Positions 2,826-49,901 of a stretch of 64,000 nt of DNA are shown in pieces (position 1 is the first letter of the stretch; each line of letters starts with the position of its first letter). The DNA is from Saccostrea echinata. Taxonomy: Eukaryota. Made by a program: the position numbers and the translations under genes. Under the pieces are notes generated by a model. The model was not told the DNA's origin and did no database searches. It worked only from the letters and a program-made list of their open reading frames with translations. The DNA lies in assembly GCF_033153115.1 (NCBI RefSeq), contig NW_026889815.1, positions 682,001-746,000 of the forward strand. Reading direction: 5' to 3'.

Positions 2826-3805
2826 TACATCTAAAAAATTCCCTAATTGGTCTTCATGCACAAAAAAAGTCATTTTTAGGCAATTAGATTTGTAAGTTTT
2901 GCATCACTCAATCAATGAATATAGAAAATACAATCACTTATTCCCTGTTTCAAACCAATTAACTTGTGCTCATGTGCACAAGGGAATTTGGGTAAAAAAC
3001 TAAGTCCAAATTGATTGGACATTTTCAGGTTTCTTTAGAATTTCAGAAGGATTTCATGAAATCTTTGATGCACCCTTACTTGGCATTGGCAAAGTGATGA
3101 AGATGACACTAAACATTCAATAATCACTGTACATCATCAAAATATATCATCCAACATCATATGTCACATTGCGATAACAAGTAAATAGCTGCCATTTCCC
3201 TTGTTAAAGCCTGTACACCAAGTGAATTTCAAATCATTCCCAAAATGCATGAAACTCTTATGGCTATGAAATGAATATGATGATTTTAAAGTTTTAAAGT
3301 CCCTGATTTTTCTCTAATAATAAGAGTGGATCATCAATTTCTCATTTTCTGTCACAAATTTACATCTAAAAATTCACTAATTGCTCTTAATGCACAAAGT
3401 AAATCATTTTCAGGCAAGTGGATTAGTAAGTTTTGCATCACTCAATCAATGTATATAGAAAATACAATCACTTATTCCCTGTTTCAAACCAATTAACTTG
3501 TGCTCATGTGCACAAGGGAATTTGAAGGAAAAAACTGCGTCCAATTTAATTGAACATTTTCAGGTTTCTTTAGAATTTCAGATGGATTTCTTGAAATCTT
3601 TGATGCACCCTTACTTGGCATTGGCAATGTGATGAAGATGACACTTGACATTCAATAATCAATGTACATCATCAAAATTATTCTGGGATTTACTTTTATA
3701 AATTTCAACACTAGCATAATCCAAATGCTCACAAACATACAATAATACATTTGTGACTGATATATCTTCAATTTTAGCCAATCCCATGAATTTTTTTTTT
3801 GTAAA
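2826..3805 (-). repeat. ~538-bp tandem satellite (~1.6 units) plus ~130-bp unique cap, inverted relative to 4790-12862
   Basis: 3661-3803 is the reverse complement of about 4793-4935. The unit recurs, e.g. CCCTTACTTGGCATTGGC at ~3072 and ~3608. Confidence 0.9.
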
Positions 3806-26648: not shown

Positions 26649-28439
26649 TCCTTCAACTGGCGTAGGAATTTCATTAATATTATGGATTCTGTAGAGGACT
26701 ACGCCAGGCGATGGGCCAGACATGAAAAAGAAGACCTTGACACTTTGTCAGAATGGATTAAATGTATCAGATATGTTAAAATCGCGCATAAAAAGATTGA
26801 GGGGCAATATGAGAACCATCTGTCCTTCTGTATTCAATAATCCAGAAGTGAAGAAAGAATTAGATTACATGATCAGTACGTACTGGTCCCTGCTGACAAA
26901 GCAGGTAACATTGTCTTTGTTTGTAAGGCTCATTATATTAAATGTATTTTAGAGGAACTTAGATTTAATTCTACAAGTGGTAATCCAACTTATACTCATA
27001 GTTCCCTTTCTAAGGAAGAAATTCTTCAAAATCATATGTCAGTTTTGAATATTTTTAATATTCCAAACAACCAAAATGAATTTGAATTACCATATTTATA
27101 TTGGATTCCGAAACTTCATAAAAATCCTTACAAACAAAGATACATAGCGGGTTCCAGCAAATGTTCAACCAAGCCTCTTTCTTTACTCTTCACTAAGATA
27201 TTAACAGTAGTGAAGGAGAAACTTCAAGAGTACTGTGCAACAATATATTCCAGAAGTGGTGTAAATCAGATGTGGATACTTATAAATTCCAAGGAACTTT
27301 CGGAAAATTTGAAATCACAAGATTTTACCAAAATCAACAGCTGAAAAACTTACGACTTTTCAACTTTATACACAACCATTCCCCACGATAAATTAAAGTC
27401 CAGGCTTTTTGATATCATTGACAGCTGCTTTTTCAATAAAACTGGAACTCGTAAATTTACTTACCTTGTCATTGGTCATTTGCAAAATTATTTTGTTGAA
27501 AAACATTCTGATTGTACACACAAGTACTCTGAAGTTGACATTAAAAAGATGCTCGAGATTCTGATTGACAATATCTATGTGGTTTTTGGAGACCAGGTCT
27601 TCCAACAATCTATTGGAATTCCCATGGGTACCAATTGCGCCCCGTTATTAGTAGACCTTTTTTGTATTCATATGAAGCAGAATTTGTCCAAAATCTTGTA
27701 CGTGAAAAGAAGAAAACACTTGCTGTGGCCTTCAACTCGACATTTAGATATATCGACGACGTATTGTCAATTAACAATGGCTATTTCCATTCTTATGTCG
27801 ATACGATATATCCTGGTGAGCTTGAGATAAAAGATACCACAGAGTCTGACACATCTGTTTCATATTTGGATATTTTACTTGAAAAAGACGTTAATGTTAA
27901 TCTAACAGCCAAGCTTTATGATAAACGTGATGACTTTAACTTTTCAATCGTCAACTTCCCTTACTTATGCAGCAAAATACCTTCATCACCTGCATACGGG
28001 ATATATATCTCTCAGTTGATTAGATACGCAAGAGCATGCTCTACGTATGTACAATTTCTAAAAAGAGGTAAATTACTGACAAGTTGATGAAACAAGAATA
28101 TCAGCTGTCTCGTTTGAAGTCATCATTTCGTAAGTTCTATGGTCGATACAATGACCTTGTTAGCAAATACAATTTATCATTGAGTCAAATGCTGACTGAC
28201 GTTTTCCATACAAATTGTTAGGCCATTATTTACACACTGAATTGTCGACGGATTTTTCCGTTATTTCCCGATCATGACAAGGAGCACACGGTGTGACCGG
28301 TCGGCAGGGATGCTCACTCCTCCATGGCACCTGATCCCACCTCTGATGTTTGGAGGTCCGTGTTTGCTTTGCTCCTATTTTGTATTGTTTGATGGACTTT
28401 TGAGCCTGAATACTGTTCGTTATCTTCATATATTTCATT
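26649..28439 (+). mobile_element. 5'-truncated Naiad-type Penelope-like element (RT C-terminal half plus 3' UTR)
   Basis: RT motifs VPADKA, YWIPKLHK, KTYDFSTLYT, GIPMGTNCAP, FRYIDDVL and KLYDKRDDF in broken frames. Near-identical to the minus copy. Flanked by TTACTC at 26645-50 and 28438-43. Confidence 0.9.
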
Positions 28440-29805
28440 ACTCTAAATACTAAATTCACAAATTGAATATGATTTTTTATATATATATGAAGCTATAGGC
28501 ATTCTGCTCGCCTTGATCGCCAATTTCTTTCTTAACTACGGTTTTCTCAGTAACGGATCAGGCAATCATTTTGAAACTTGAAAGGAGTTTCATTTGCATT
28601 GCTTGAAAGTGGTTTCTATTTTTTTTTTTTTATAAAAAGTTGGAATCGGTTGCAAACAGTTGCCATAGAAAAGAAACAGAAAAAAGGTAAATATACGGAT
28701 ATGTGACAAAGTGCTCCGAGGTAGCTTGGATAATCGCGATGAAACATCACAGAAATTTTTATTAGAAACTCTTGTTGTGCAGTCAACATTCAAAATTTTC
28801 TTAATGCCTAACGTTGCCATGGAAACAAAAGAAAAGTAAAGATTCTCTCATTTTCTCAGTAACTACCCAAGCAATTTTTTTGAAAACTATAAAAGTTTAA
28901 TCCTTTCACTGTATCAAAGCGGTTTCTGCAAAAATGGAATCGATAGTCACCGGAAGTAAGTCGAGGCCTTTTGCTGTTTTGTTTCACTCTAGTTTTGTCC
29001 GGTAGTGTTCTCCTAGATGGCTTATAAAATCTTTATGAAAAAACTTTACAGAAATAAAAGTCACCACTCTTAGTTATGCAGGTATATTTTAAATTTTCAA
29101 AGTTTGTCGCTTTAGACATGGATAGAACAAATAATTTAAGAAATGTTGCTGTCACGTGACCATTGTATTCTATCACAAGTTTCTTTTTAGGAATCACATC
29201 TCAATTCCCTCTTCAACATATTTTTGTTATTGAATATTTTTGTGATTTATTGGCGGCGATGTCCATTTACAAACTACACAAGAGGCCCAAGGGCCTTGAT
29301 GGTCACCTGAGTATAATACAACAATTTAGAGGATCCATAGAGTATAAAATAAACTGATAAATGAAGTTTTGTTGCCCAAAAGCAAGAGAAATAGGATGAT
29401 CAGGATAATTTCTCTATTGTGTTGTGACATAATCTTGGAGTTATCCGGAATTTTCATAACTTCTTGTATTTGGTTCTACTTTTATATCGAGCCTACATTT
29501 TCCCTTTATCATTGTTAACGTGGCTCGTAGCACCTTACCAACTTTGATTGTTTCGTTCTCTGCAACTTTGAAGCACAATGGAGTAATAAAATATGAAGAT
29601 AACGAACAGTATTCAGGCTCAAAATTCCATCAAACAATACAAAATAGGAGCAGAGCAAACATGGACCTCCAAACATCAGAGGTGGGATCAGGTGCCATGG
29701 AGGAGTGAGCATCCCCTGCCGACCGGTCACACCCGCCGTGTGCTCCTTGTCATGATCGGGAAATAACGGAAAAATCCGTCGACAATTCAGTGTGTAAATA
29801 ATGGC

Positions 29806-32588
29806 CTAACAATTTGTAAGAAAAACGTCAGTCAGCATTTGACTCAATGATAAATTGTATTTGCTGACAAGGTCATTGTATCGACCATAGAACTTACGAA
29901 ATGATGACTTCAAACGAGACAGCTGATATTCTTGTTTCATCAACTTGTTTGTCAATAATTTACCTCGTTTTAGAAATTGTACATACGTAGAGCATGCTCT
30001 TGCGTATCGAATCAACTGAGAGACATATACCCCGTATGCAGGTGATGAAGGTATTTTGCTGCATAAGTAGGGGAAGTTGACGATTGAAAAGTTAAAGTCA
30101 GATGTGTCAGACTCTGTGGTATCTTTTATTTCAAGCTCACAGGGATATATCGCATCGACATAAGAATGGAAATAGCCATTGTTAATTGACAATACGTCGT
30201 CGATATATCTAAATGTCGAGTTGAAGGCCACAGCAAGTGTTTTCTTCTTTTCACGTACAAGATTTTGGACAAATTCTGCTTCATATGAATACAAAAAAAG
30301 GTCTACTAATAACGGGGCGCAATTGGTACCCATGGGAATTCCAATAGATTGTTGGAAGACCTGGTCTCCAAAAACCACATAAATATTGTCAATCAGAAAC
30401 TCGAGCATCTTTTTAATGTCAACTTCAGATTACTTGTGTGTACAATCAGAATGTTTTTTAACAAAATAATTTTGCAAATGACCAATGACAACGTTAGTAA
30501 ATTTACGAGTTCCATTTTTATTGAAAAAGCAGCTGTCAATGATATCAAAAAGCCTGGACTTTAATTTATCGTGGGGAATGGTTGTGTATAAAGTTGAAAA
30601 GTCGTAAGTTTTTCAGCTGTTGATTTTGGTAAAATCTTGTGATTTCAAATTTTCCGAAAGTTCCTTGGAATTTTTAAGTATCCACATCTGATTTACACCA
30701 CTTCTGGAATATATTGTTGCACAGTACTCTTGAAGTTTCTCCTTCACTACTGTTAATATCTTAGTGAGGAGTAAAGAAAGAGGCTTGGTTGAACATTTGC
30801 TGGAACCCGCTATGTATCTTTGTTTGTAAGGATTTTTATGAAGTTTCGGAATCCAATATAAATATGGTAATTCAAATTCATTTTGGTTGTTTGGAATATT
30901 AAAAATGTTCAAAACTGATATATGATTTTGAAGAAGTTCTCCTAAGAAAGGGAGCTATGAGTATAAGTTGGATTACCACTTGTAGAATTAAATCTAAGTT
31001 CCTCTAAAATACATTTAATATAATGTGCCTTACAAACAAAGGCAATGTTGTTACCTGCTTTGTCAGCAGGTACCAGTACGTACTGATCATGTAATCTATC
31101 TAATTCTTTTTTCACTTCTGGATTATTGAATACAGAAGGATAGATGGTTCTCATATTGCCCCTCAATCTTTTTATGCGCGATTTTAACATACATCTGATA
31201 CATTTAATCCATTCTGACAAAGTGTCAAGGTCTTCTTTTTCATGTCTGGCCCATCGCCTGGCGTAGTCCTCTACAGAATCCATAATATTTATGAAATTCC
31301 GACGCCAGTTGAAGGATCGGGGTTCCCTATATTTAGGACCTTTTAAAATTAGTGATCTAATTTCCTCATTTTTAACTATATTTACGTCACCAGTAATAAC
31401 GTGTCCAGCAGGACTATAGTTATAGGGTGAAGAAGAACATGAACACGACGGAGGATTATGTTTCAGATATTCGATATCCAGGCCCTGTAAAGTTTTCTTG
31501 TAATTAAAAAGTTTGGAAGCAATAGTCGATGTATATTTGTAGGAAATACAAGGTGTAGTCTTTAACTTGAAATATGGTGGAATACAAGACTGGACCCTTT
31601 TGTGATTAAGAATATTACTTATATTAACCGCGTCAATTCCTTTGATGGCATATTGAAGTTTAAGGAAATAACGGATTGTTTTAGCTGCATTTACCTCAGT
31701 AAAACGTGGGGGTTTAAAAAGCCTATGATTTGCAATAACCATAATTACAGATCCGAGCCTATATTCTGGTGTCGAGGAATGAAAATATGGACTTTCCTTG
31801 ACCTTCTCAAGAAGACTATTTAAAAGTTTCAAAGGGACAGAGTAAAGTTTGGTGCGAATATGATGTAGACCTAACTGTTGATTTACGTAAGGTAGTAATG
31901 AATCAAAAGAGACATAGTGTATCAAAGGTTTATTATAAGACCGATGCCCATGACTACGCTTACGTCTCTGTGTATGGTTAAAAAGTCCCATCACATTTAC
32001 ATTGTTACACTGTGGACTGGAAAGATTTCCAACACTATCGACATTGTCATTACACCCATAAGGAAAGGCTGTCCCTAGCTTTCTAATCCAAAAGTCTTCT
32101 CGTTGTCTACTCAGTGATGGGCTGTTTGTGTCGTGGTAAATCTTGTCTAGAATTCTAACTTTCATTGATAAAATAGAATGATCAGGTAAATTAAAATGCT
32201 TGTATAAAAGTTGCTGACCCCCATTATTTATCTGAAATCTATCACCTGAAATTCTTTTATTGAGTGATCCCTTGGTTTCACCAACATAAACAAGTCCACA
32301 AAGACTACATTCTATTCCGTAGACAACATTTGAGGATTTGCAGTTCAGATTTTCCCAAGTTTTGGTACAGAAGCTCTGTCCAGTAAGATTACTGGTGAAA
32401 GAAATGTTAGTTATCAAAATGTCACATGTTTTACAATTTTTCGCAGAACATTTTGAAATAGAAGACATGGGATCGGAAAAGGAATCCTCGAATATATCTC
32501 TAATAGAAACCTTACATTCTTTCAATTTTTTGTATGAATTATTGGTTTTATACCAAAACTGGGAATCTGAAGACTGTAGATATGACAT
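29806..32588 (-). pseudogene. PLE GIY-YIG endonuclease-RT ORF, disrupted
   Basis: ORFs 30942-32588, 30613-30912 and 29806-30408 join into one EN-RT protein. Private lesions are TAG plus frameshift at ~30942, TAA at ~30430 and a ~75-bp deletion at ~30100. An in-frame TGA at 30613-15 is shared with the other copy. Confidence 0.9.
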
Positions 32589-32674
32589 ATGTTTAATATC
32601 CCTGAGGATTATCCGAGGGGCACCGAATCAACTCCTTGAGTCTGTGTCCCTTATAGACTCAAAAGAGTGACGCC

Positions 32675-32682
32675 TTTTTATA
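32675..32682 (-). promoter_or_regulatory. Candidate TATA box of the PLE ORF
   Basis: TATAAAAA on the minus strand, about 90 nt upstream of the ATG at 32588. Confidence 0.4.
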
Positions 32683-34307
32683 CTGGGCGACGCGACTGCC
32701 AGTATCATTTCGTTAATCTGTATACTCATGAATGAATAGGTACCCAACGACAAGTATCCTCGGGGACAGACTGTCCACCAGTAGCGATACATGTTCGGTG
32801 GTTAAAATGAAATATATGGAGATAACGAACAGAATTCAGGCTCAAAGGACCATCAAACAATACAAAATAGGAGCAGAGCAAACACGGACCTCCAAACATC
32901 AGAGGTGGGATCAGGTGCCATGGAGGAGTGAGCATCCCCTGCCGACCGGTCACACCCGCCGTGTGCTCCTTGTCATGATCGGGAAATAACGGAAAAATCC
33001 GTCGACAATTCAGTGTGTAAATAATGGCCTAACAATTTGTATGAAAAACGTCAGTCAGCATTTGACTCAATGATAAATTGTATTTGCTGACAAGGTCATT
33101 GTATCGACCATAGAACTTACGAAATGATGACTTCAAACGAGACAGCTGATATTCTTGTTTCATCAACTTGTTTGTCAATAATTTACCTCTTTTTAGAAAT
33201 TGTACATACGTAGAGCATGCTCTTGCGTATCGAATCAACTGAGAGATATATACCCCGTATGCAGGTGATGAAGGTATATTGCTGCATAAGTAGGGGAAGT
33301 TGACGATTGAAAAGTTAAAGTCATCACGTTTATCATAAAGCTTGGTTGTTAGATTACCATTAACGTCTTTTTCAAGTAAAATATCCAAATATGAACGAGA
33401 TGTGTCAGACTCTGTGGTATCTTTTATCTCAAGTAAGTAATATTGTTTGTCATGCTCAATTTCTACTGTTGCATCTGTACGGTATATGATTTTGACATAA
33501 TCTTGGAGTTATCCGGAATTTTCATAACTTGTTGTATTTGGTTCTACTTTTATATCGAGCCCACATTTTCCCTTTATCATTGTTTACGTGGTTCGTAGCA
33601 CCTTATTAACTCTGATTGTTTCGTTGTCTGCACCTTTGAAGCACAATGGAGTAAGTAATATTGTTTGTAATGCTCAATTTCCATTGTTGCATCTGTACGG
33701 TATATGATTTTGTATGCAATTTGGTCATTATAGTGTGTGAAGTCTATTTTTGGATAACGTGCGAGTTGCACTTTTCATGATTTTTAAGACTTAAAGAAGT
33801 TTTGTGTCACAAGATAGTGCATTTTGGATTGAAAAGCACACATATATACCAAATATTTCTGTAATGTTTTTTCTAGTCAAGCATTTTTATTTGCATGTTA
33901 AATGCAAACAATTTATGCCATTGTAAAGAGTGCAGGAAAACTTGAAGGCATGCTATAAAACATTGATTGTATTAAGTACATGTACCTAAGTTTGTTGGCA
34001 TGTTGTAAAACATAGTTTGATCAAGATACATGTTCATACCTAAACAGAGAGTTACCTGTTGTATGATAGTTCTAGTCATTTCACTCATTTGTCATGTTAC
34101 GTTCATTCACTTCCTAGATAGCTTTGGATGTAATTTCATTTATTATTTTCTCCGTTCTTATTTGATTCATTGTAATATTTTCAGATCTAACCATATCCTC
34201 ATGGAGAAATAAATGGTTGAACTTACTGCGACTTGCATTTTTATTGGACCAAGGCAATAAGGCAGTACAGTTAGATTCCATTTTAGCAGAATACAGTGAG
34301 GCCAGAG

Positions 34308-37300
34308 ATGGGTACAGAAGACGAGGAACGGACAAGAAAATTAACAGAAAAAGGATCAGAACTATATAGTGAAAGGAGTTGTGCTCACAGAGACAAGACA
34401 GAGGAGGCATGGAATGAGGTTCAGAAGATTTTGGAAAACCTATGCGAAGCGGACGGCAGCAGAGTGGACACCATGGAATCGGAACTCCGCAAGCGATATG
34501 ACTGCTATGTATCTTTGCGCTCTGATTACATCGACTTTCTGAAAGGGACAAAAACTGAGGAGAGCAACAATGAGTTACGTGTTCTGGAACGATCAAGTGA
34601 AAACAGTGATCGAATATTTAAATCAGCTTTGACGCAAATCAAGATTATAAAAAAAAAATGCGGATGCGAGATCTACTGCAAATACCTTTGCTGGCTATTC
34701 TGCATCACGGGGAACAAAGGTTCAAATTAAGTTAGAAGAAATAAAGACAAAGGTAAAATTGGCCGAAGAGGAAGCTGGTATCCAAAAACAGTTGGCAGAA
34801 ATTAGACACAAAAAGGAAGAGGAGAAGTTAAATGCAGAATTAAATGTTATAAATTTGACAAAGGAAGCTGTTGAATTGGAAGCGGAGGCAAAGGCTTCAT
34901 CTGTTGGAGAAGATCGGGACGACTCTCCTTCTCCTCCTGTACGATTACCGGTGGAGAGAAGTCGTGCTGAGCGATATGTTGCTGAACATTTTCATGATCC
35001 TATAGTTCATCCTTTACATTATGGATTCTCAAACTCGCCTTACATCTAATCTGACCACCGTGACCGAGATCCATTCCATCGTCATACACCAAGCAACGAT
35101 AACCATGTGGCATCAGAGCTTACTTCTTTTCTTTTAAAGAAAGATCTTTTGATGATAAGACTTACTGTTTTTGATGAGAAGCCGGAACACTACTCTTCCT
35201 GGAAAGTGAATTTCAAAGACATCATAAATGATCTCAGAGTTAATCCTTCTGAGGAATTGGATTTGTTAATTCGCTGGCTAGGCCCAGATTCTGCAAGACA
35301 CGCCAAAACTATAAGGACTTCAATAGGTTCTGATCCTAGATGGGGAGTAGCAAAAATTTTGGGAGCGTCTAGATGAAAGGTTTGGTGCCCCTGAGATGGT
35401 CGAGTCTTCAATCAAAAACAAGCTTAACTCTTTTCCAAGGCTTGGGAATAAAGACAATAAGAAGTTATACGAGTTAGTAGATATCATGATCGAAACAGAA
35501 GCATTGATGGGAAATCCACAGTATTCCATGCTGCTCTCGTATTTCAACTCATCATCTGGTGTATCTCCAATTATCAACAAACTGCTGTATAACCTTCAGG
35601 AAAAATGGATCATGAGAGCAGCCAACTATAAGAAGCAACATGATGTTCCATATCCGCCATTTTCCTTTGTATTAGACTTTGTCAAGGAAATGAGCAAGAT
35701 CCACAACGATCCAGCATTTTTTCACACCTTTGAGACACACACCTCTAAACCAACTACTGGTTCATACGTGACTGGAAACCAGAAACCTGTTATTGCTAGG
35801 AAGACAGATGTCAAGGCTAATATAAGTAGCAGTCCAGACAAAATATGTCCAGTGCATATGAAAGAACACTCGCTGAATCAGTGCAGGGAATTCTTAAAAT
35901 GGGATATTAGGAAACGTAGAGAGCTGTTGAAGCGAAGAGGCATTTGTTTTAAATATTGCGCATCTACGACTCATTTGATGAGAGATTGTAGACAATCTGA
36001 GGAATGTGCCATATGCAAAAGCCAACAACACCCAACAGCGTTACATATGGAAGGAAGAAATGCTACTGTATTTGTTGTCAATCAAACATCAAAAGACAGT
36101 CCGAAAGTAACAATTGCTCATGGCGGGGAGAAAGCTAAAGATGTCGTTGCGTCATGCACCTCACTATGTGGAGAGGAGTTCAATGGTCGATCATGTTCAA
36201 AGATTGTGCTCGTAAAGGTGTATCTGGAAAGGGAACCTGAAAGGACTATCACAGCGTACGCTCTTCTGGACGAGCATAGTAACAAGACTTTAGCATTGTC
36301 GGAACTTTTGGGTCAGCTTTCTGTAGAAGGTTCTCAGGCTGCTTACACACTGTCAACATGTGCAGGTACAGAACAGAAAACAGGCAGACGAGCTGTGGGG
36401 ATTATGGTCAAATCAAGGGATTGGATAAACCAACATACCTTGCCAACAGTAATTAAATATAACGACATTCCAAATAATATCTCAGAGATCCCTACCCCAG
36501 AAGTAGCGAGGGCACAGTCTCATTTAAAACATATCGCTAGTCAGATTTATCCTCTGGATCTTAAGAAAAAGGTCCAGTTACTTATTGGCCGTGATTTGCT
36601 GGAAGTTCACCGTGTTCAACATCAAATAACAGGTCCACGTGGAGCACCATTTGCTCAAAGATTGAGCTTGGGCTGGGTGATCGTGGGAGAAGTTTGTATT
36701 GGCAAGTTCCATAGAGACAATGTCAATGTATTGAAAACCAACTTACTTGTGAATGGTAGGAGAACAATTTTCAACCCATGTGACTCAAAACTCGTCTTGC
36801 GTGAGCAGCCAGTTGAATCTCCCATTGGAGAAAATCTCATTGTTAGAACCCAACAGGATGAGAAAATAGGAATGTCTTACGAAGATCGAAAGTTCACAGA
36901 GTTAATGGACTCAACACTCAGGAAGGACTCCTCTGGAGTATGGATGGCTCCCCTACCATTCAAAAGTCAAAGGGCACGGCTTCCCAACAACAGGCTACAA
37001 GTATTGCAAAGAGCTTGACAACTAGAGTCGAATCTTAAAAAGAGTCCGGAGAAACTGAACCACTTTATTACCTTTATGGACAAAGTTTTCCGAAGTCAGG
37101 CTGCAGAAAAGGCTCCTGATCTACAGGATGATGAGAAGGAGAGATGGTATTTACAAATTTTTGGGGGTATATCATCCAAAGAAACCCAACCAGATCAGGG
37201 GAGTATTTGACTCCTCAGTAGTGTACAAGGGACTTTCTCTGAACAATGTGTTGCTAACAGGACCAAATTTGACCAACAGTTTGTTGGACGTGCTGTTGCG

Positions 37301-40120
37301 ATTCAGAAAGGATGAATGTGCAAATACAGCGGATATAGAGCAAATGTTCTACAGATTCTTCGTCATACCTGAGCATCGAGACTTTCTGCGGTTCTTCTGG
37401 TTCGAAGACAATAACCCTAATTCCCCAATGGTTGAATATCGTATGACAGTCCATGTTTTTGGTAATCGCCCGTCGCCCGCCATAGCCACTTATGAACTGA
37501 GAAGAGCGGTACAAAAGGCTGACAATGATGTCAAAGAATTTGTTAGTTGTGATTTCTATGTTGACGATGCACTGACGTCCACGTCTTCGCCTGAAGCAGC
37601 AGTGAGTTTATTGGAATGTACCAGGAGGAGTCTTGCAGAATGAAGGCCACATCCGACTACATAAAATTGCATCAAACAACAAGAATGTGATGTCTCAGTT
37701 TCCTAAGGAAGATCTTGGAAAGGATCTCAAGAACTTAGATTTGGGTGATGATGCATTGCCCTTACAAAGAGTCTAGGTCTATCTTGGAACCTGAATACGG
37801 ACAGCTTTGTTTTCACTGCTCCTAAACTGAGTAGTTCATTCACAAGAAGAGGATTGGTTTCAGCAGTTAGCAGCATTTTTGATCCTATAGGATTTTTGGC
37901 ACCCTTTACAGTTTATGGAAGAATGTTATTGAGAGAGGCATGTCCACACAGACTGGGATGAACAACTTCCTGAAACACATCACAAACGTTGGTAGAACTG
38001 GATGGACGACTTGAATCTGTTGGATGGATTCTGTATTCCTAGAATGTATGTACCGAGTTCGTACAGTCAGATGAAAGTACGGGAAGTGTTAATCTTTTCT
38101 GATGCTTCGGAGAAGGCTGTAGCTGCAGCTGCTTATCTCAAGACAACAGATGACCTCGGTCAACAGCAGTTGGAGTTCATTATGGTTAAATCCAAATTAG
38201 CACCTTCAGCTGGTAATAGTATACCTCGCTTAGAGCTTTGCGGGGCAGTCCTGGCGACAGAAATTGGGCAGTTCCTTGCAGAACAGCTTGAAATACTTAC
38301 AACCAAGATGAAATATTTTGTTGATAGCAAGGTTGTCCTCGATTATATAAAGAAGGACACACGGAGATTTTATACCTATGTTAGCAATAGGGTAGCCAGG
38401 ATTCGTCATGCCACTTCACCAGAACAATGGAATTATGTGCCTACCCATTTAAACCCTGCAGATGTTGCTACAAGGGATGTGTCACAGGACATTTTGACAG
38501 CCATACAAATATGGTTGAAAGGACCTGAGTATATCTTAAAGGGCATGGAAACATCAAAAGAAGAACCAGAGATATTTCCCCTCATTGAACCAGACTCTGA
38601 TAAAGAAATCCGTCCAGTACAGGTGCTACAATTCACTGTCTCAACACACTTACCACTAGATGAACGATTCACGAAATTCTCAACATGGAAGGGGTTAGTT
38701 CATGCAATTGCCATCTTGAAATATAATGCAGGCTGCCACAACAAAGAAAATGACTCATCTTGCGAAGGATGGCATTGGTGCCAGGAAGGAACAAGTCCAG
38801 CTGGACTTAGAGAGGCAGAAAAATTTGTGATAAAAACCCTGCAACAAAAGCACTACTACAAGGAGATCAACAATTTAAGACTAGGGTTGTCGCTCACCAA
38901 GGAAAGTCACATCATACCACTGTCTCCTTACTTGGATGAAGATGGTCTCCTGAGGGTTGGTGGCCGATTAAATCGTCTTCGAGATAGTCTAGGCCTCGCA
39001 TCTACGAATCCTATCATCATTCCGAAGGGGGTTGTAGCAATGTTTCTTGTTAAACATTTTCATGAAAAAACCTTTCACCAGGGCCGGAAATTTACTGAAG
39101 GGAAAATACATCTCATCTCTCATTGGGAAATGTGTTTTGTGTAAAAAGCTAAGAGGAAAAACGCTAGTACAAAAGATGTCCGATTTACCAACAGATCGAT
39201 TGGTTCCTGGACCACCCTTTACAGCAGTTGGCGTAGATACCTTTGGACTATGGAACGTCACCACACGCAGGGCACGAGGTGGAGCCGCTCAAAGTAAGCG
39301 CTGGGCAATTATTTTCACCTGTTTAACAACCCGTGCAGTGCATATCGAGCTTATCGAAGAAATGAGCAGCTCTAGTTTCATAAATGGCTTGAGGCGAGTC
39401 AATGGATCAGACCGAGGGACGAACTTCGAAGGTGCAACGGATCAGATTGGTCATGACGCAATCAATGTGGAAGATGTTCAACTAAAGGCTCATGTAAACA
39501 ATTCAGGATCAATCTGGACTTTTAATGCTCCCCACTCCTCCCACATGGGAGGAGTGTGGGAAAGAATGATAGGCATTACTCGGAGAATTTTAGATGGAAT
39601 ACTAGTTCAACAGAAATCCAAAACCTTGACTCTTGAAATCCTGTCCACATTGATGGAAGAAGTCTCTGCTGTTATGAATTCCATACCAATCTCAACTATT
39701 CCATCTGACCCAGAGACACCCTTGATATTAAGCCCAAATATTCTCCTCACTCAAAAACAAGATAATAATCCACCTATGTTGTCAGAACAATTTTCACTCA
39801 AGGATGTCTATAAAGCAGAATGGAAACATGTTCAAGTACTCTCTGATCTCTTTTGGAGGAAGTTGAAGGATACCTACTTGAATGAATTGCAAGAACGCAG
39901 AAAGTGGCACGACAAGAAACCAAATATAAAACCCAGTGATGTTGTCCTCATCAGGGATGCGAGCCTTGCTCGAAACAAGTGGCCCGTTGGAGTAGTGGAG
40001 GAATCCATAAAGAGTGATGACCAGTTGGTTCGTAAGGCCGTTATCCGTGTACATTGTGATGGCAAAACTGTGTTGTATACTAGACCTATCAGTGAGCTTG
40101 TTTTGTTATTAGATGATTAG
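34308..40120 (+). pseudogene. BEL/Pao gag-pol polyprotein with frameshifts and stops
   Basis: Gag (FDEKPEHYSSWK, three Cys/His knuckles), protease ALLDEHS, RT FYVDD, RNase H IFSDASEKA and SIPRLELCGA, integrase GVDTFG / SDRGTNF / GGVWERMI, and a C-terminal RPISEL. The PR-RT-RH-IN order is that of BEL/Pao. Confidence 0.93.
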
Positions 40121-40186
40121 TTTAGAATACTTAGTAAGTGTAGGAGTTTTAGTTTATTGTTATATCTTGAGATATAAGACAGGGAG

Positions 40187-40997
40187 TGTGTTGTGACATA
40201 ATCTTGGAGTTATCCGGAATTTTCATAACTTGTTGTATTTGGTTCTACTTTTATATCGAGCCCACATTTTCCCTTTATCATTGTTTACGTGGTTCGTAGC
40301 ACCTTATCAACTCTGATTGTTTCGTTGTCTGCAGCTTTGAAGCACAATGGAGTAAGTAATATTGTTTGTATTGCTCAATTTCCACTGTTGCATCTGTACG
40401 GTATATGATTTTGTATGCAATTTGGTCATTATTTGTGAACATCTAGTTTACATAGTAGTGTGTGAAGTCTATTTTTGGATAACGTGCGAGTTGCACTTTT
40501 CATGATTTTTAAGACTTAAAGAAGTTTTGTGTCACAAGATATTGCATTTTGTAATGAAATGCACACATATAATATTATTCCAAATATTTCAGTAATGTTT
40601 TTTTCTAGTCAAGCATTTTTATTGCATGTTAAATGCAAATAAATTATGCCATTGTAAAGAGTGCGGGAAAACTCGATGGCATGCTATAAAACATTGATTG
40701 TATTAAGTACATGTACCTAAGTTTGATGGCATGTTGTAAAATATAGCTTGATCAAGATACATGTTCATACCTAAACAGAGAGTTACTTGTGTGATAGTTC
40801 TAGTCATTTCACTCATTTGTCATGTTACGTTCATTCACTTCCTAGATAGCTTTGGATGTAATTTCATTTATTATTTTCTCTGTTCTTATTTGATTCATTG
40901 TAATATTTTCAGATCTAACCATATCCTCATGGAGAAATAAATGGTTGAACTTACTGCAACTTGCATTTTTATTGGACCAAGGCAATAAGGCAGTACA
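40187..40997 (+). repeat. 3' LTR, 811 bp
   Basis: TG...CA ends; direct repeat of 33493-34269 with scattered substitutions and a ~27-bp indel. Confidence 0.95.
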
Positions 40998-42509
40998 TCT
41001 ATTATTCAGTAACAACTCATTAAATAAGTTTAATATGTCCCCCGTTTATCACTATCACAATGCAGACTATTAACAAATTATTAGTGCTTCTGTACCCAAT
41101 ATTATTAACCTCTTGCACTGGTATTTGTTGGTCTTTGAAGAACATTTAATAAGTTATTTTTGTCTCATTTTTATTTATCTATTATTTACAAGTCTATCTG
41201 ATCATTAAAACTATTAAAGTACTTTTTATATTATACAACAAAAATTCTTGCATAGTTCTCTTATTCTATTAACCTTTCAAATACATTATTTACAGTGAAT
41301 AATTATCAAAAGTGAATGGCAAAGGGGAATAACTTCTCTCAGTAGAATACAAATTAATAGAACCCTGGTCAGGACCAGAACACTTGACCAAATAGTCCAG
41401 ATGTTCAAAACTCCGGTAAAATTACCCTTACTTATTAAAACGTTTTCTCTGTTTGCCTCGAATATGATCTTCACTACAAATTTTACACAGCCCTACCTTA
41501 ACAACAGAACCCATGACCAAGGGTCAGGAAATTCACAAATTTGGAATAGCTACCCTAATCTTCATAACTATAGACTTGATTTATCTGCTAAATACCCAGG
41601 GACAGAAAAGTAGATTGCAAAGAAATAATGCACTTTCACTACATAATCAGTAGAGCCCCGCCCTACAATGTCATTCTGGGCTTATTAACACTTTTTTAAG
41701 ACTTCCTATATTATACTTAAAGTGTTCTGGGAATTATTTGAGATTATTATCTAGTAGTTTTCGACCAAAAAAAAACCCAAAAAATAAGTTGTTATTTAAA
41801 CCTAACCCTAGGTTTAAATATGTAACCCTAAGGTCTGAAAAGTGTAAAATGTAACATAATTCATTTGGGCTTATAAACGAACGGAGTTAGCGGGTTAAAA
41901 ATTGGGTTTAGGATTGTAGCTAAACCCCTCAATGGTTTGTTGCAAAACCTATTCTAACCCCATGTAAGAAAAAATGGCATAAAAATCGAATAAAAAAATT
42001 CATGTCTGGGGGTATACCCAACTCCAAATTTTTCTCAAGGTTTTGAAAATTCTTAACGTCTTATAGCATCAAATGCTTAAAAACCGGCCGATTTCCATGG
42101 TATAGATCTGGGTTTTCTTGGCTGTAGCTAACTTAATTTACGCGAAAAAAATGTTTTCTGAAAAATATCCCTTACCTTAACTTTTTAACTAAAATTTTGA
42201 TTATGTTACATTTTACACTTTTTTGATCCTACCCCCCTGGGGCAATTTTAGAAGAACTCTGTGGCTTTTAAAACTATTTAAAAATCTCAAATCTGCGGCA
42301 TAATTTTTTTGTGGCTATAAGCATCCCTTAAAAAATAATAGGAGTTTGAAAAGTGTAAAATGTAACATAATTTTTATATCATATAAGGAGAGAATGGGCT
42401 TGGTCTGGGGTTAGCTCTAAATATAGGGGAAGTTCATAACCCTTCTTAGGGGACATTGTCATGATGACAAACACAAACTGTAGCGTTTTCTAAGTTATAT
42501 TTACAGTAT

Positions 42510-42601
42510 TTTCTTTCGTTTGTAATGGATTTATTGTACAGAGAGGCGTGACAGTCGAGTCACGCCTCTCTGTACAATAAATCCATTACAAACGAAAGAA
42601 A
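42510..42601. repeat. Perfect 43-bp-arm hairpin with a 6-nt loop
   Basis: TTTCTTTCGTTTGTAATGGATTTATTGTACAGAGAGGCGTGAC-AGTCGA-reverse complement. Confidence 0.95.
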
Positions 42602-44686
42602 GTTTCTGTAAATGTCTTGTGTTATGGTCATTTGCATAGTCACTCCTTCAGCACTAATCTGCACGCAACATTACGTCACAGGCCTTGGTCCATCGTAAGT
42701 GTACATGGTGTTCAAACAAAGCAGAAAGTACAAAGGAGATGGTTGCATCATGCGATGTTAAACGAGTGTGCAATTGTATTTGATGGATTAATTTAAGCAG
42801 TATGAGTATTTCAAAAAACACGGTATACACAGGCACAATACTGAAAACTTTGATCCGCCCGCACTATGATCCGCTACATTACTGTTACTAGGAATACGAT
42901 TGTATGTGCTGAGTAAATCTGAGTCAAGTACTGTAGCCACAAGTGTCAAAATTATGGAATGTAGTGTGAAAGAGTCCAAATACATGCATATACAAACATG
43001 TATCCGTTTGCATGTAACTCAAGGAACACATAAAACAGGTGCTATTAAGGGAATCATCGAACTGCGCGCGTTTTCAATATTGTCACATTTGAATTATCGT
43101 TTTAATTTGAATACATGAAATTCTGTATATTTTTAAAAAAAAAAATGTTTAAAGCAGTTAACCTAGTTTCCATGTATTCCTCTTCAAAATGGTTCTCACG
43201 TATGCATTTTCAGATTGAAGAGAGGGGGTTGAATTTTGTGAGGTTTCTCATGTTTCCTCTGTATAGGTTGTATAAACTTACAGAAATTGAAGAAAAAATA
43301 TTCAAAAAGTATCGAGTTCTTTTGGAAGTTATTGTACAGTATATTGGAATTTATTGTACGGCTAAGCTCCGTCCCCTAGAATTTATAGTACGTTGGAATT
43401 CAGATTTCTATCGGATTTAAAGTATGGCTAACATCAAAAGAAAAAGTACCGCACCATGACACAAATGACCTTATGGCCTAATTTACTGAGTATGGACAGA
43501 AACCCAAAGTGTAAATGTAACACAATTTTTTGTGACTTTTACTTTTTGGGCCCTATTCTCTTATAAATCAATTTTAACTGGATATTTTAGAAAAAATGAC
43601 TTTTATTTAAGAGAAATAATCAAAATATAATGCCAGAAGTTCATGGTGTTCAATTATCTTTTCGATTATCATCCATATGACCCCTGCTCAGATGTAAGTA
43701 GCCATTTAGGTGAATTTTTATAAGTCCCAACAAATATACATTTTTCTTGTATTTCTTGAAAATACAGGAAATTTAAGTGAAATTTGGCTTCCTTTTCCTT
43801 CGCCTAAGGTAACCGTACAAATATAAAGGAAAAAAATTTTGTTCTATACATAATCGACAGAAATAAGGACAAATCAGGTGTCGCGACATGTCAGAATCAC
43901 TTAAGTCATTCTTAATTTGTTGCGACATGATTTTTCGACTAACCGAGTATTGAACAATTAAAAACATATTATATTTTGTTAATTCAATGCATTTCCTACC
44001 TTGTTTCTATTAAAGTAGGTTCACAAATTGATTTAAGCTACATTTTACACTTTCAAACCCAAGAGTGATATTTATATTTCCCTTTTTGGCTAATATTTGC
44101 TTATTATTAAATTTATATTTGATATTAGAGAAAAATCAACCTTCATTTAATATGAATAACCTGTGTAGCAACCTCTAATGATAAAACGCCGCTTAATGAT
44201 ACAAATATCATTAAGCGTTGCAATTGCAACGCTTAATGCCATAAATTATTGCATTAATAGTTGACATTCTCAACCGCTAATGCTAAATCGCCGCTTAATG
44301 ATAGAATTATATCATTAAGCGTCACAAATGCAGAGCAACCCTTGATGAAACAAGCAAATATCGACATAATCGACGACTAATGATACACAGTAGTGTATCA
44401 TTAAGCGTTGCAGTTGCAACCTTAAATGATATAAAATTTAGAAATGGTTTGCAATATCTAAGAGAAACACACATCCACCTTTCCTGAACTATGAGATATC
44501 ACTTGCCAAAACATTTATATATGCCCTTGTGCTATATAAATGGTAATTATTGGAGTTTTACTATGTTTTCTAGCTAGTCAAGGGAACTTCTTTAAGCTCC
44601 GGATGTTTAAAAGACAGACAGTCAGAAAGCTGAGAGAAAAAGATACAGACAAATAGATCAATAAAATGATATTCAAATCCTTTTAA

Positions 44687-44864
44687 GAGGGCTATATTGA
44701 TCTCTTTAGAAGAAGAGCTCCATATAAAGATACACAAAAATGATCAAATTTTAAAAATAAAATGTATGATTTTTTTCTTTGCCAAATGATAGTTGACAAC
44801 TTAAGATATTATATAAAAAAAAATAAGTTATATCTGATGGTTAATTTCTTCACCCCCAGCCTCC
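44687..44864. mobile_element. TTAA-targeting MITE (Kolobok-like), 178 bp, in the left arm only
   Basis: TTAA|GAGGGCT...AGCCTCC|TTAA. The right arm shows the empty site (rev. comp. CCTTTTAAAAGAACC), which demonstrates the TTAA duplication. Confidence 0.85.
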
Positions 44865-46699
44865 TTAAAAGAACCACTTTTTTTTACTGAAAATACAGAA
44901 ACAATCAATTTCTTTTTAAATTTATATAACGATTTGAATAGTCAACCTAAAATATATATAATATATTTGAATATTTTTTATCGAAACTTTGTATTTTAGA
45001 TTTGATACAGCTTAACACATGTCACTGTTAACGTTTCAGATATACATATCGAAAAATAAATTTATAGTTTTAACTATTGTATTTCTAATCTGCTCCATTT
45101 CTCCAAATTTCGAAAAAGAGAGACATCAATATTCACAACTTATGTTTAAGGATACATAACGCAAAAAATACAATGTAATACATTGAATAATATATATTGT
45201 TTTGAGAAAAAAGTTTCATTTATCCTTTATTCGTGATCAGAGTTACTTGAATACATTACTGTTGCATGATTATTTTATTATCATTTTTGAATTTATATCA
45301 AAATATAAATATGGGTTTTTCATGTTATCAAATCTCATAAAGCCTGGGCCGAGGAGCTTCTTGTTGAAATATGATCATGTACCAATCGTATTTTTATCCC
45401 TTTTGATGTTTAAAAATAATACATGTGCCTTATTACTGGTCGGATATAGTTTTGGACTAAAATTTACCCCCCCCCCCCCCCCATAGACGGATTTATAGCC
45501 GAGTAAAAACGGAACTTATAGGAATACTTGTGACTGATTTTTAACAAATATTTGCAAAGTATAGTTTTTAGCCCATGAAACGATTAAATTGTCAGACCTC
45601 GGTGGTTTATTTTGGAATTTGTTGAACTTGTTTTTCAACTACTTATGACGTCATTGTGAATCACGTCTATCATTTATAATTTAACAATGAACTTGTGGTC
45701 ATGTGGGAAACCTGTTTGTATAAAGGGTTAAAACGTAACAATGAGATAATGTGGTGCAAGAGGAAATATTTGCGAAACTATGTAAATATTGAAGAATACA
45801 GTGTATAAATTCCACTTTTCTGTGACTGAAAATAATGGACCCGAAGAGAAATTAATAATCCTAATCCTATAAAATAAATGTATTCTTTGTCCATTTCATA
45901 CTTCGTGTGTGTGGTACGCATTGTAATCTTTTATTGTGTGTCATACCAATCCATCCTTATGCTAACTGTTACATGTTACTTTTAAATGTTTCATCATTAT
46001 CATCAGTGGTAGATCTAAGAATGGAATAACAAATAGTAAAGATGATTATAAAGATTTCAGTTTGCTTTACTTTAAGTCTTGGTTACAACTATTAAGAGAT
46101 TTACATGATTTATAGCCAGTGTTTGCAGGCTGGGTGAAAATATTTCTTTTAGTCATAAATCAATGACATCAACAGAGTTAAAATGGTCGGTTTTTAAACC
46201 AGATATCTTTTTATTATCAGTCGCCCGAAGACATATCCATGCGTGATGCCAATCCGAGGAAGCAATTATTCTTTTGATCTCTAAAACCAGTCCACTAGAC
46301 GAACCCGCAAGTCTCATGAGTCTTCTAACACTTATGATTGATGGTATATTTGTTAAAGACTTGGTGAAATATATACTCTTGGGCCTGGTTTAGCATCAAT
46401 GATTGAACGAAACAATTCATTAACGTTCCTGATACGAAACCTAGAATTGGGATCCATTTCCAAAACGAATTGGAATATTTTACTCCAAATTTCCCGAGGT
46501 ATTATAAAATAGAAAAGGTAAGTCACTTCCATTTGTTTACACTGGACCCCTCTTGGATATCAGGACCGAAATATCATTTACCTAATACATGTCACAAAAA
46601 GGTGTCATTATATCTTGTTTCGGTAGATATTTTTGTCTTTAATCGTGCTATTTAATTGCCCAGGCCTTCCATAATAATTCGAGTATTCATCGTGAAAAA

Positions 46700-47790
46700 T
46701 GCTACAAGATTTGGAAATGTCAAAGTAGAAATTACGGAAGTGATGCAAAAACGACACCTAGCGTTTAACTCTTGAGTTTCGAGTGTTATAGAATCAAGGG
46801 AAAAGCCAGAGGTCTACGAAAAAGTTTGGGAAAATTTTCATAAAGAAGTCGAAATTGATTCATTAGAATATAATAAATTCTGCTTAATTCTGCTTAATTT
46901 TCGAAATGAGTGAGGGTAGTCGTCAATATTCCCTTTAAAGGATGTTATCACTGATACCAAAAAGCGTTTCAAAAATCGCTTAAACATTACAATACATGTA
47001 AACAGTCCTGTTTATGAGTTGCAAGAAGACACACCATTACACTGTAGAATTCCTGTGGACGTGTTGGAAGAAGACACGGTTTTAACTGTAGCATATCTAT
47101 CGACGACTTCGACGAGGATATGTCTCCAACCTGTAGTATTCAATTCGACAATTTAGACGAAGACAAACCTACCAACTGTAGCAGTCCTGTGGATGAGTTG
47201 CAAGAAGACAAGCATCCCAACTGTAACATTCCTGTCGACGTGTTAGCAGAAGACTTATCTCTAAACAGCGGCGGTCTAGTCGACAATCTTGGCGACAAAA
47301 CACCTCCCACCTGTACTAATCCTGATGACAAGCTAAACGAGGACACGCTTAACAACTGTAGCAGTCCTGTCAAGAAGTTGCAAAAAAAAAACACGCCTCT
47401 TTATTGCAATAGTCCTGAAAGAGATAAGTCAATGTGCCTACCTCGGGAAATTTGGAGTAAAATATTCCAATTCGTTTTGGAAATGGATCCCAATTCTAGG
47501 TTTCGTATCAGAAACGTTAATGAATTGTTTCGTTCAAACATTGATGCTAAACCAGGCCCAAGAGTATATATTTCACCAAGTCTTTAACAAATATACCATC
47601 AATCATAAGTGTTAGAAGACTCATGAGACTTGCGGGTTCGTCTAGTGGACTGGTTTTAGAGATCAAAAGAATAATTGCTTCCTCGGATTGGCATCACGCA
47701 TGGATATGTCTTCGGGCGACTGATAATAAAAAGATATCTGGTTTAAAAACCGACCATTTTAACTCTGTTGATGTCATTGATTTATGACTA
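46700..47790 (+). pseudogene. Cargo gene remnant: ~9 x 15-aa acidic Cys/Pro repeats followed by an F-box-like motif and a C-terminal domain
   Basis: ORF 47120-47587 contains (xxPVDxLxEDxxxxC)n then LPREIWSKIFQFV..IRNVNELFR. After a frameshift it continues TNIPSIISVRRLMRLAGSSSGLVLEIKRIIASSDWHHAWICL. Confidence 0.55.
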
Positions 47791-49901
47791 AAAGAAATAT
47801 TTTCACCCAGCCTGCAAACACTGGCTATAAATCATGTAAATCTCTTAATAGTTGTAACCAAGACTTAAAGTAAAGCAAACTGAAATCTTTATAATCATCT
47901 TTACTATTTGTTATTCCATTCTTAGATCTACCACTGATGATAATGATGAAACATTTAAAAGTAATATGTAACAGTTAGCATAAGGATGGATTGGTATGAC
48001 ACACAATAAAAGATTACAATGCGTACCACACATACGAAGTATGAAATGGACACAGAATACATTTATTTTATAGGATTAGGATTATTAATTTCGCTTCGGG
48101 TCCATTATTTTCAGTCACAGAAAAAGTGGGATTTATACACTGTATTCTTCAATATTTACATTGTTTCGCAAATATTTCCTCTTGCACCGCATTATCTCAT
48201 CGTTACGTTTTAACCCTGTATACAAACAGGTTTCCCACATGACCACAAGTTCATTGTTAAATAATAAATGATCGACGTGATTCACAATGACGTCATAAGT
48301 ATTCAACAACAAGTTCAACAAATTCCAAAATAAACCACCGAGGTCTGACAATATAATCGTTTCATGGGCTAAAAGCTATACTTCGCAAATATTTGTTAAA
48401 AATCAGTCACAAGTATTTCTATAAGTACCATTTGTACTCGACTATATATCGTCTATGGGGGGTAAATTTTAGTCCAAAACTCTATATCCGACCAGTACTA
48501 AGGCACATGTATTATTTTTAAACATCAAAAGGGATAAAAATACGATTGGTACATGATCATATATATTTCAACAAGAAGCTCCTCGGCCCAGGCTTTTTGA
48601 GATTTGATAACATGAAAAACCCATATTTATATTTTGATATAAATTCAAAAATGATAATAAAATAATCATGCAACAGTAATGTATTCAAGTAACTCTGATC
48701 ACGAATAAAGGATAAATGAACCTTTTTCTCAAAACAATATATATTATTCAATGTATTACATTGTATTTTTTGTGTTATGTATCCTTAAACATAAGTTGTG
48801 AATATTGATGTCTCTCTTTTTCGAAATTTGGAGAAATGGAGCAGATTAGAAATACAATAATAAAAATTATAAATTTATTTCTCGATATGTATATCTGAAA
48901 CGTTAACAGTGACATGTGTTAAGCTGTATCAAATCTAAAATACAAAGTTTCGATAAAAAATATTCAAATATATTATACATATTTTAGGTTGACTATTCAA
49001 ATCGTTGTATCAATTTAAAAGGAATTCGCTTGTTTCTGTTTTTTTTCAGTAAAAAAAATTGGTTCTTTTAAAAGGATTTGAATATCATTTTATTGATCTA
49101 TTTGTCTGTATCTTTTTCTCTCAGCTTTCTGACTGTCTGTCTTTTAAACATCCGGAGCTTAAAGAAGTTCCCTTGACTAGCTAGAAAACATAGTAAAACT
49201 CCAATAATTACCATTTATATAGCACAAGGGCATATATAAATGTTTCAGCAAGTGATATCTCATTGTTCAGGAAAGGTGGATGTGTGTTTCTCTCAGATAT
49301 TGCAAACCATTTCTAAATTTTATATCATTTAAGGTTGCAACTGCAACGCTTAATGATACACTAGTGTGTATCATTAGTCGTCAATTTTGTCGATATTTGC
49401 TTGTTTCATTAAGCGTCAATATTGCTCTGCATTTGTGACGCTTAATGATATAATTCTATCATTAAGCGGCGATTTAGCATTAGCGGTTGAGAATGTCAAC
49501 TATTAATGCAATAATTTATGGCATTAAGCGTTGCAATTGCAACGCTTAATGATATTTGTATCATTAAGCGGCGTTTTATCATTAGAGGTTGCTACATAGC
49601 TGTTCCAGACAGCATAAAAGATAATAAAAATCCCAGGATGTTTTCATTCTTTTTCTGTAAATATGTATTTGCTTCGCTATTTCCATCTAATTTCATTCGC
49701 ACTCTAATTAATTACACACTCAATCACTAATCTTTTAGTATATTATGGTATGTTCAAACGTAATGAGTAATGAAAAATCATCTTGTTTTAGTACTGATTC
49801 ATTTAAATATGTAATTTTTTTCAATTTATATACTCGGTATACGTAGAAAAACTAGTGCCAAATTGATGTTTGAAGGAACGTGAGAAACTACGACCACTTA
49901 A

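Follow-up and report, generated by a model that had tools for sequence, protein, structure and literature searches.

A palindromic element in Saccostrea echinata that carries the 3' end of a likely Ginger2-type transposon on both sides

How does a stretch of DNA come to end in the same sequence twice, and what is the piece of gene that it carries on both of its arms? These questions are raised by a 5.4-kb palindromic element in a 64,000-nucleotide stretch of the Saccostrea echinata genome (assembly GCF_033153115.1, contig NW_026889815.1, positions 682,001 to 746,000; called here the window, with coordinates counted from its first letter). An earlier note on this DNA had described the element as lacking a transposase, as carrying a cargo gene, and as having unclassifiable ends, and these descriptions have to be revised. 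The open reading frame (ORF) appears to be the tail of an integrase-like transposase, and the termini fit those of the Ginger superfamily. The reading that we favour, and that we consider probable although well short of settled, is that of a dead, non-autonomous remnant in which two 3' ends of a likely Ginger2 element were brought together by break-repair copying, with a later exchange or an adjacent deletion.

Anatomy of the palindrome and the identity of its ORF

The whole element extends from 44164 to 49596 (5,433 bp, without assigned strand), begins with TGTAG and finishes with CTACA, and is made of two 3' ends placed head to head. These edges come from a boundary search, the left one being fixed by contigs of run X1, and they replace the previous limits of 44161 and 49599. 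X1 is a single DNA sequencing run of another organism that shares 5% of the window words, and its contigs were placed on the window (3,012 records; we inspected 6 of 707 loose ends, 15 of 70 joints, and 40 of 542 difference rows); its contig depth is no measure of copy number, and modular ends can mimic joints. The left arm (44164-46501, minus strand, 2,338 bp) repeats the 3' 2.16 kb of the element in inverted orientation and holds in addition an inserted miniature inverted-repeat transposable element (MITE), and a spacer of 937 bp separates it from the right arm (47439-49596, plus strand, 2,158 bp). The global alignment of the left arm to the reverse complement of the right one contains 2,093 matches, 50 substitutions (24 transitions and 26 transversions), and 10 gaps, equivalent to 97.7% identity. 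Between 79 and 83% of the element is therefore inverted repeat, and the palindrome with arms of ca. 2.16 kb that make up about 80% of its length stands as first described. No further copy of the palindrome was found inside the 64-kb window.

Besides the gene tail, the right arm contains 3' non-coding DNA (1.83 kb) and the terminal region, as judged from the arm alignment, the X1 contigs, and the comparison with the related protein P0007. From its sequence we can take the right arm to be the native copy, because the gene tail there runs on continuously from the linker that precedes it. The MITE (182 bp, 44683-44864, no strand assigned) is very abundant in X1 and, as already noticed before, sits in the left arm only; the arm alignment places a TTAA on both of its sides and a single TTAA at the matching empty site of the right arm. 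It may be of a piggyBac/Kolobok-like type. As for the spacer, its first 478 bp (46502-46979, no strand assigned) match neither the transposase profile nor anything else in the window and are partly a high-depth repeat in X1 (depths of 894 and 555 per bin over 46709-46980, likely another abundant repeat). The remainder (46980-47438, plus strand) belongs to the transposase gene as an acidic linker built of a 45-bp (15-aa) repeat, homologous to the linker of P0007 and present once. Rfam and ARAGORN scans found nothing, and a single ORF of at least 100 aa lies inside the element.

The identity of this ORF came from protein searches. A 61-aa piece with an F-box-like motif (47402-47584), searched against 1.84 billion representatives, gave five matches, whose clusters include P0007 (334 aa) and P0011 (646 aa, with an OTU domain). 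The N-terminal part of P0011 in turn led to six proteins among 2,578 candidates, four of which (P0014 to P0017, 780-1008 aa) contain both rve and OTU domains, with OTU also found in P0018 from Dreissena and P0019 from Mytilus, so that Pfam detects OTU (PF02338) in all six. In tblastn, five of the six relatives matched both tail copies of the window (best E per protein from 5e-10 to 8e-18), and the same C-terminal tail is present in five of the six; P0019 is without the tail and had no tblastn match in the window. A D-D(34)-E signature together with an LPxEIW tail was found in all seven long relatives checked (P0014 to P0017, P0020, P0025, and P0038), which look like intact proteins of rve-OTU-repeat-tail arrangement. 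The nearest relative, P0007, is 43% identical over 117 aa, linker included, and keeps the end of an OTU domain, a linker of the same kind, and the tail. We can thus assign the internal ORF, by sequence homology, to the last ca. 108 codons of an rve-OTU transposase, and not to a cargo gene.

The remnant is small and damaged. The tail at 47439-47762 (plus strand) consists of the F-box-like motif and a conserved SVR..AW..W domain and is interrupted by two frameshifts before the stop codon at 47760-47762; a second copy at 46178-46501 (minus strand), recovered by tblastn and by the arm alignment, extends from the motif to the stop with the same two frameshifts. One of them (near 47585/46355) was the shared frameshift already seen in both arms, and a second (near 47730/46210) is now added to it. 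The inner limit of the arms falls on the Leu codon that precedes PREIW (47439), among the first codons of the F-box-like motif, where it had been placed. The coding end is indeed duplicated, but what is present twice is only the last ca. 108 codons, around one-eighth of the 780-1008-aa relatives, and not the 3' half of the gene. When a profile of nine relatives was compared with the six frames of the whole window, only the tail was found, with no integrase or OTU sequence.

Longer relatives were found neither for the second ORF piece (0 of 57 candidates) nor for the P0007 tail (0 of 43 candidates). The search for loci of the relatives gave none in viral contigs or genome contigs, and one decayed tail in a 5.3-kb contig (L001) without visible ends. 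The contigs that code for P0014 to P0017 measure 6.57-7.03 kb, and a size of 6.6-7.5 kb is found for the contigs of 6 among the 10 other non-chromosomal cluster members listed, which is only a hint about the length of the parent unit. The cluster of P0015 has 37 members, many of them Dreissena polymorpha fragments, suggesting that this type of family spread recently in that species.

The F-box-like nature of the tail is only a lead. Against the Pfam F-box profile (PF00646), the 61-aa window piece scores 18.9 bits, and the window piece, P0002, and P0005 together cover 18.8-19.1 bits, below the cut-off of 20.5, with no match in five of the seven relatives scanned; among the Atlas clusters, F-box appears at 0.92 or less. 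The model of the conserved tail of ca. 110 aa (predicted local distance difference test, pLDDT, of 76) has two helices, a strand, two more helices, and a terminal hairpin. It has no clear match in the PDB (no Foldseek match at an E of 0.001 or lower, best VIA Z of 4.4), a search result that shows neither a new fold nor the absence of an F-box. The model of full-length P0017 is poor (pLDDT of 52). A transposase with an rve-OTU-F-box-like architecture was not found in the literature searched, a scope that excluded Repbase reports and subscription journals, where it may already be described. The same literature contained no paper on non-autonomous Ginger2 elements of Crassostrea, and PMC2836005 was the only paper in it to mention both Ginger2 and OTU.

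Termini, flanks, and superfamily

Both ends of the element fit the pattern TGTNR, with TGTAG at 44164 and CTACA at 49596. The left modular terminal region (44164-44440, no strand assigned), likely the original terminal inverted repeat (TIR) according to 11-mer counts and X1 depth, is composed of palindromic CGCTTAATGAT/ATCATTAAGCG units, and its right counterpart, finishing in CTACA, was delimited by the arm alignment and the 11-mer counts (49314-49596, no strand assigned). The 11-mer CGCTTAATGAT occurs five times forward and five times as reverse complement in the 64-kb window, always within the outer ca. 270 bp of the arms, compared with 0.05 occurrences expected by chance from the base composition, and the outer 277 bp fold with a z of -7.7 relative to 100 dinucleotide shuffles. 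These results agree with the micro-palindromes reported in this region, and the units likely represent transposase binding sites. The outermost 173 bp of the arms are identical. X1 depth reaches 1,285-2,165 per bin at the termini (partly flank), versus 1-44 inside the arms (45,403-46,470 and 47,539-48,606), and overlapping X1 contigs span the 3' non-coding arm. A modular outer region of ca. 270 bp with high X1 depth is what an original TIR would look like, while the present repeat measures 2.16 kb.

As described in PMC2836005, Ginger1 and Ginger2 are defined by integrase-like transposases, TGTNR ends, and target site duplications (TSDs) of 4 bp, with 4 to 5 bp and a preference for RTATAY in Ginger2. 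The same source gives CCGG or CCGT/ACGG as the TSD of Ginger1 and TIRs of up to 270 bp, lists a C-terminal OTU or Ulp1 domain for Ginger1, and tabulates Ginger TIRs of 45-297 bp along with a 252-bp non-autonomous derivative (Ginger2-1N1_NV). In bivalves, 98 of 14,275 DDE elements were classified as Ginger according to PMC10294476. The ends of our element, previously called unclassifiable, thus follow the Ginger pattern. The transposase leads to the same place: by a hand count on the supplementary alignment of PMC10045372, the DDE core of P0014 is identical to Ginger2-2_CGi at 51 of 113 positions, versus ca. 26 of 113 for Ginger1-1_AC, and the core of the relatives resembles by eye the rows of Ginger2-1, -2, and -3_CGi and those of CySi and TeGr. 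Pfam finds only rve, rve_3, and OTU in P0014 to P0017, with no reverse transcriptase (RT) or RNase H within the proteins, and the Atlas look-alikes carry Integrase_H2C2 and rve. Ginger2/TDD is marked by an H2C2 zinc finger and lacks GPY/F and YPYY motifs as well as RT/RNase H beside the integrase. Gene and termini, compared at the level of sequence, therefore suggest Ginger independently of each other.

Within the superfamily, the closest system appears to be the oyster and clam group of Ginger2/TDD (Ginger2-1, -2, and -3_CGi, Ginger2-1 and -2_CySi, and Ginger2-2_TeGr), with which the element shares the TGTNR termini (PMC2836005, PMC10045372) and the relatives share, by eye, the core motifs QIDLxDM with a 7-residue insert, YILSVxDxFSRF, EFxG, and SRPYHPQSQGKxERxH. 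It departs from the described members in its 2.16-kb arms in place of TIRs of 45-297 bp, in having the 3' end at both ends, in the absent TSD, and in the OTU domain and F-box-like tail of the relatives of its ORF. Ginger1 also has TGTNR ends, TIRs of up to 270 bp, and the C-terminal OTU seen in the relatives, but it fits less well, as its CCGG or CCGT/ACGG TSD is absent at the element and the DDE core of the relatives is about half as similar to it, by the hand count, as to Ginger2_CGi. IS3EU/GingerRoot, whose ends are described as TA..TA, rarely TG..CA, with a 6-bp TSD (PMC10045372, PMC6839031), has another core: the relatives lack by eye the WHID..HGxIDGFSR and NQRIE motifs. The ends of our element are TG..CA, and its flanks agree at 4 of 6 positions. 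This 4 of 6 flank match, instead of a 6-bp TSD, and a single ORF of at least 100 aa in place of a virus-like gene set speak against Polinton/Maverick. Membership of the Galileo/P type was rejected because the remnant is an rve-OTU tail and no duplication of 7-9 bp exists at the element ends.

The flanks likely account for part of the difficulty in classifying the insertion. On the left lies a host repeat with a period of ca. 540 bp (43542-44163, plus strand), which self-comparison and X1 contigs show to be cut at the element end; its positions 43542-43619 and 44082-44159, 540 bp apart, are 70% alike, and this likeness fades at the element end (a weak signal, with a score of 80 versus a shuffle maximum of 70). 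This repeat could not be clearly assigned to the 537-bp satellite in the left part of the window (score of 128 versus a shuffle maximum of 111, other comparisons falling within the shuffle range). The X1 contigs of the left-flank repeat match the window through 44163 and then diverge into AAATTAAAAG, so the element starts at 44164. The right flank reads TAGCTGTTCC, unlike that X1 continuation, and the two flanks likely derive from different sites. We tested 12 symmetric boundaries for duplications of 2-10 bp and found none at the TGT..ACA boundary, where the best result was 4 of 6 (AACCTG/TAGCTG). The observation that the ends follow no TSD rule therefore holds, but the unmatched flanks, if they do come from different sites, would explain the missing duplication. 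The earlier note had set its foldback reading against a described superfamily with ordinary short TIRs, and that half of the alternative is what we find, as the termini match Ginger.

An element with ends GCAACC..GGTTGC inserted in a palindromic TA target, the rule of Tc1/mariner-type transposons, and carrying a captured piece of gene, could also be imagined, since TA is found on both sides at 44166-67 and 49593-94. However, this pair appears only with the ends shifted inward by 4 bp, the left-flank repeat departs after 44163 and not after the TA, and an internal rve-OTU tail predicts TGT..ACA ends, which makes this reading highly improbable. Beyond the window, the terminal 24-mer had no match in metagenome contigs and the terminal palindrome pattern had none in viral contigs; its nine occurrences in prokaryote genomes are attributable to chance, as the likeness to the element never exceeds ca. 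40 bp around the pattern.

Taken together, the element is likely a remnant derived from a Ginger2-type transposon and not an intact Ginger2 insertion, because the locus has neither a TSD nor the transposase core. Several points weigh against this interpretation and the history that we derive from it. The defining mark of Ginger2 is missing, with neither a 4-5-bp TSD (CCTG/TAGC; ACCTG/TAGCT) nor an RTATAY target. The assignment to Ginger2 comes from a comparison by hand rather than a phylogeny, an H2C2 finger is not detected by Pfam in P0014 to P0017, and PMC2836005, in its account of the domains, describes OTU for Ginger1 and not for Ginger2. The termini are linked to the transposase by one locus, P0014 to P0017 being known as proteins only, and the tail together with OTU might also move to elements of other types. 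To this we must add that 478 bp of the spacer (46502-46979) are assigned to no known sequence and that the X1 evidence belongs to another organism (5% of words), with a depth that is uninformative on copy number. Last, the identity of the terminal 173 bp has a P of 7e-4 at the mid-arm rate of divergence, and under any model it requires constraint or conversion.

Divergence of the arms and history of the locus

The differences between the arms are unevenly distributed. There are no events in the first 173 columns of the alignment, 57 in the 1,379 mid-arm columns (4.1%), and 3 in the 591 inner columns (0.5%). The inner tract of the left arm (45908-46501, minus strand), delimited by the divergence count and a change-point test, is 99.5% identical to 47439-48032. 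The best change point is at 45,908, with none of 500 permutations as strong, and for the longest stretch without a difference (426 bp) P is 1.5e-4, or 6e-3 when clustered events are merged. The change point is ca. 25 bp past the AATAAA at 48005, the first one downstream of the stop codon, possibly by chance, as the right arm has seven such signals. Six arm substitutions could be polarised with X1 (among 40 of 542 rows), and three were derived on each arm. From this pattern we deduce that the inner tract was copied more recently than the rest of the arms diverged; coding constraint cannot explain it, because the ORF is dead in both arms. The earlier proposal that the arms grew by copying one end or are homogenised by conversion is supported, with sequence that was exchanged or copied anew. 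It had also argued against misassembly, and we agree. Although long inverted repeats are prone to error, a fold-back read or an inverted haplotype join would hardly leave arms set apart by 50 substitutions, 10 gaps, and a MITE that is flanked by a TSD, and the X1 organism shares the left state at three sites and the right state at three; we regard an assembly artefact as scarcely credible.

The history that we favour would begin with a single-ORF Ginger2 parent of ca. 6.5-7.5 kb and a modular TIR of ca. 270 bp. A defective copy, with two frameshifts and with integrase and OTU lost, would have suffered a break, whose repair synthesis was templated by its own 3' end or that of a sister, in inverted orientation, and halted where the F-box-like motif begins, so that the 5' end was overwritten with the 3' end. 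The two intact ends would leave the unit mobilisable in trans. As a later step, we favour a crossover near 45,908 with another copy of the family, which would bring in, at one stroke, the left flank together with the MITE and the outer part of the left arm, and would account for both the step from 4.1% to 0.5% and the unmatched flanks; alternatively, the target duplication could have been lost through an adjacent deletion. Inverted copying of the 3' end followed by crossover is the most economical history, but a mobile palindromic subfamily or two joined insertions fit nearly as well.

The best precedent for the copying step is Galileo. In Drosophila mojavensis, its TIRs become longer as they take in internal sequence, for which repair templated by the opposite end has been proposed; among 170 copies, 12 are chimeras with unmatched flanks (PMC3573991). 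A near-exact architectural precedent, by analogy, is copy 147 of D. willistoni as reported in PMC4168063, with TIRs of 1,575 and 1,608 bp that are 97.5% identical and that each hold 545 bp or more of the transposase. Our element resembles such copies in its internally repetitive long TIRs, the transposase 3' end in both arms, an arm identity of ca. 97.5%, and a non-autonomous nature, and the chimeric copies of D. mojavensis, where long TIRs are also found in 2RT copies, similarly lack matching TSDs (PMC3573991). It differs in transposase, termini, and TSD length (7-8 bp in Galileo, of the P superfamily), and copy 147 keeps its TSD.

A foldback-like Ginger2 subfamily would share this copying step with our preferred history and differ in claiming many copies: the palindrome would have multiplied as such, with drifting mid-arms, selected ends, an inner tract added last, and, in this copy, a TSD lost by adjacent deletion. 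In its favour, both ends are intact and identical for 173 bp, and Galileo does have non-autonomous copies with long TIRs and TSDs. X1 joints such as 44320 to 49499 (among the 15 of 70 inspected) suggest short derivatives that share the ends of the element. However, there is no second copy in the 64-kb window and this copy has no TSD, so we consider it a possible but clearly less favoured explanation.

Alternatively, two separate defective Ginger2-type insertions could lie head to head, with a deletion that took their 5' parts and a conversion that evened the inner 0.6 kb, never forming one transposed unit. Such an origin would explain the unmatched flanks, the cut repeat of the left flank, the arm-specific MITE, and a mid-arm divergence of 4.1% in which each arm has derived changes, and possibly also the 478 bp of unassigned spacer. 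It comes at the cost of two insertions close together and inverted relative to each other, of a deletion, and of a conversion tract (3 events in 591 columns) whose limit coincides exactly with that of the arm on its inner side, and we judge it rather unlikely.

Implications and other elements of the window

If our preferred history of inverted 3'-end copying is true, TIR extension of the Galileo type with transposase in both arms, a trait called unique to Galileo in PMC4168063, would be extended to the Ginger superfamily, and the unmatched flanks may mark a rearrangement breakpoint made by a transposon. The locus also directs attention to a clade of rve-OTU transposases in molluscs whose F-box-like tail of ca. 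110 aa is conserved, a combination that bears on the proposal, made in PMC2836005, that Ginger transposons engage the ubiquitin system. All of this carries modest weight, coming from a single decayed copy known from DNA alone.

The structure recalls the Mu killer (PMC3440606) and the Ac killers (bioRxiv 2020.01.07.897926) of maize, where structures of this kind are described as able to silence their own family: one transposon end is present twice and inverted, with part of the transposase gene and unequal arms of ca. 2 kb. In those systems the duplicated end is the 5' one, transcription and silencing were demonstrated, and the composite insertions of Ac killers have TSDs, which are absent here. 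Any hairpin formed by our element would depend on read-through that starts outside it or at its left end, because the right copy's own sense transcript would exclude the left arm. It is a long shot that we are dealing with a "Ginger killer," that is, a mobile Ginger2 palindrome whose read-through hairpin of up to 2 kb would silence the parent clade, and whose transposase would join an OTU deubiquitinase to a working F-box adaptor, removing and adding ubiquitin.

The rest of the window is rich in repeats. A BEL/Pao-type long terminal repeat (LTR) retrotransposon occupies 33490-40997 (plus strand), with broken frames, a pair of LTRs that are 93% alike across 811 bp, and Pfam matches to Peptidase_A17, DUF5641, and, weakly, RVT_1; a further LTR piece of 169 bp lies at 29418-29586. 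Nested inverted fragments of an RT-bearing element, 95-98% alike, fill 26649-33433. By eye it is Penelope-like, with a GIY-YIG-like stretch in the ORF at 30942-32627 (minus strand), and the two ORFs scanned had no Pfam match at an E of 0.001 or lower. The tandem repeat of ca. 537 bp is found in several blocks at 2824-6158 and 11057-12862, in both orientations and 91-96% alike, and a 168-bp array of 7.6 copies at 17187-18472 has a related inverted fragment at 40998-41667; this array may be similar to the Helentron-associated satellites of oysters. Exons of what is likely a gene for a secreted protein with a fibrinogen domain (PF00147, E of 2e-10) are located at 23027-26005 (plus strand), and a 275-aa ORF at 682-1509 (minus strand), with Cys motifs and no Pfam match, resembles what we take to be a fragment of a DNA-transposon protein. 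Finally, a perfect 43-bp hairpin with a 6-bp loop is found at 42510-42601, amid repeated AAAAGTGTAAAATGTAAC motifs that span 41833-44058.

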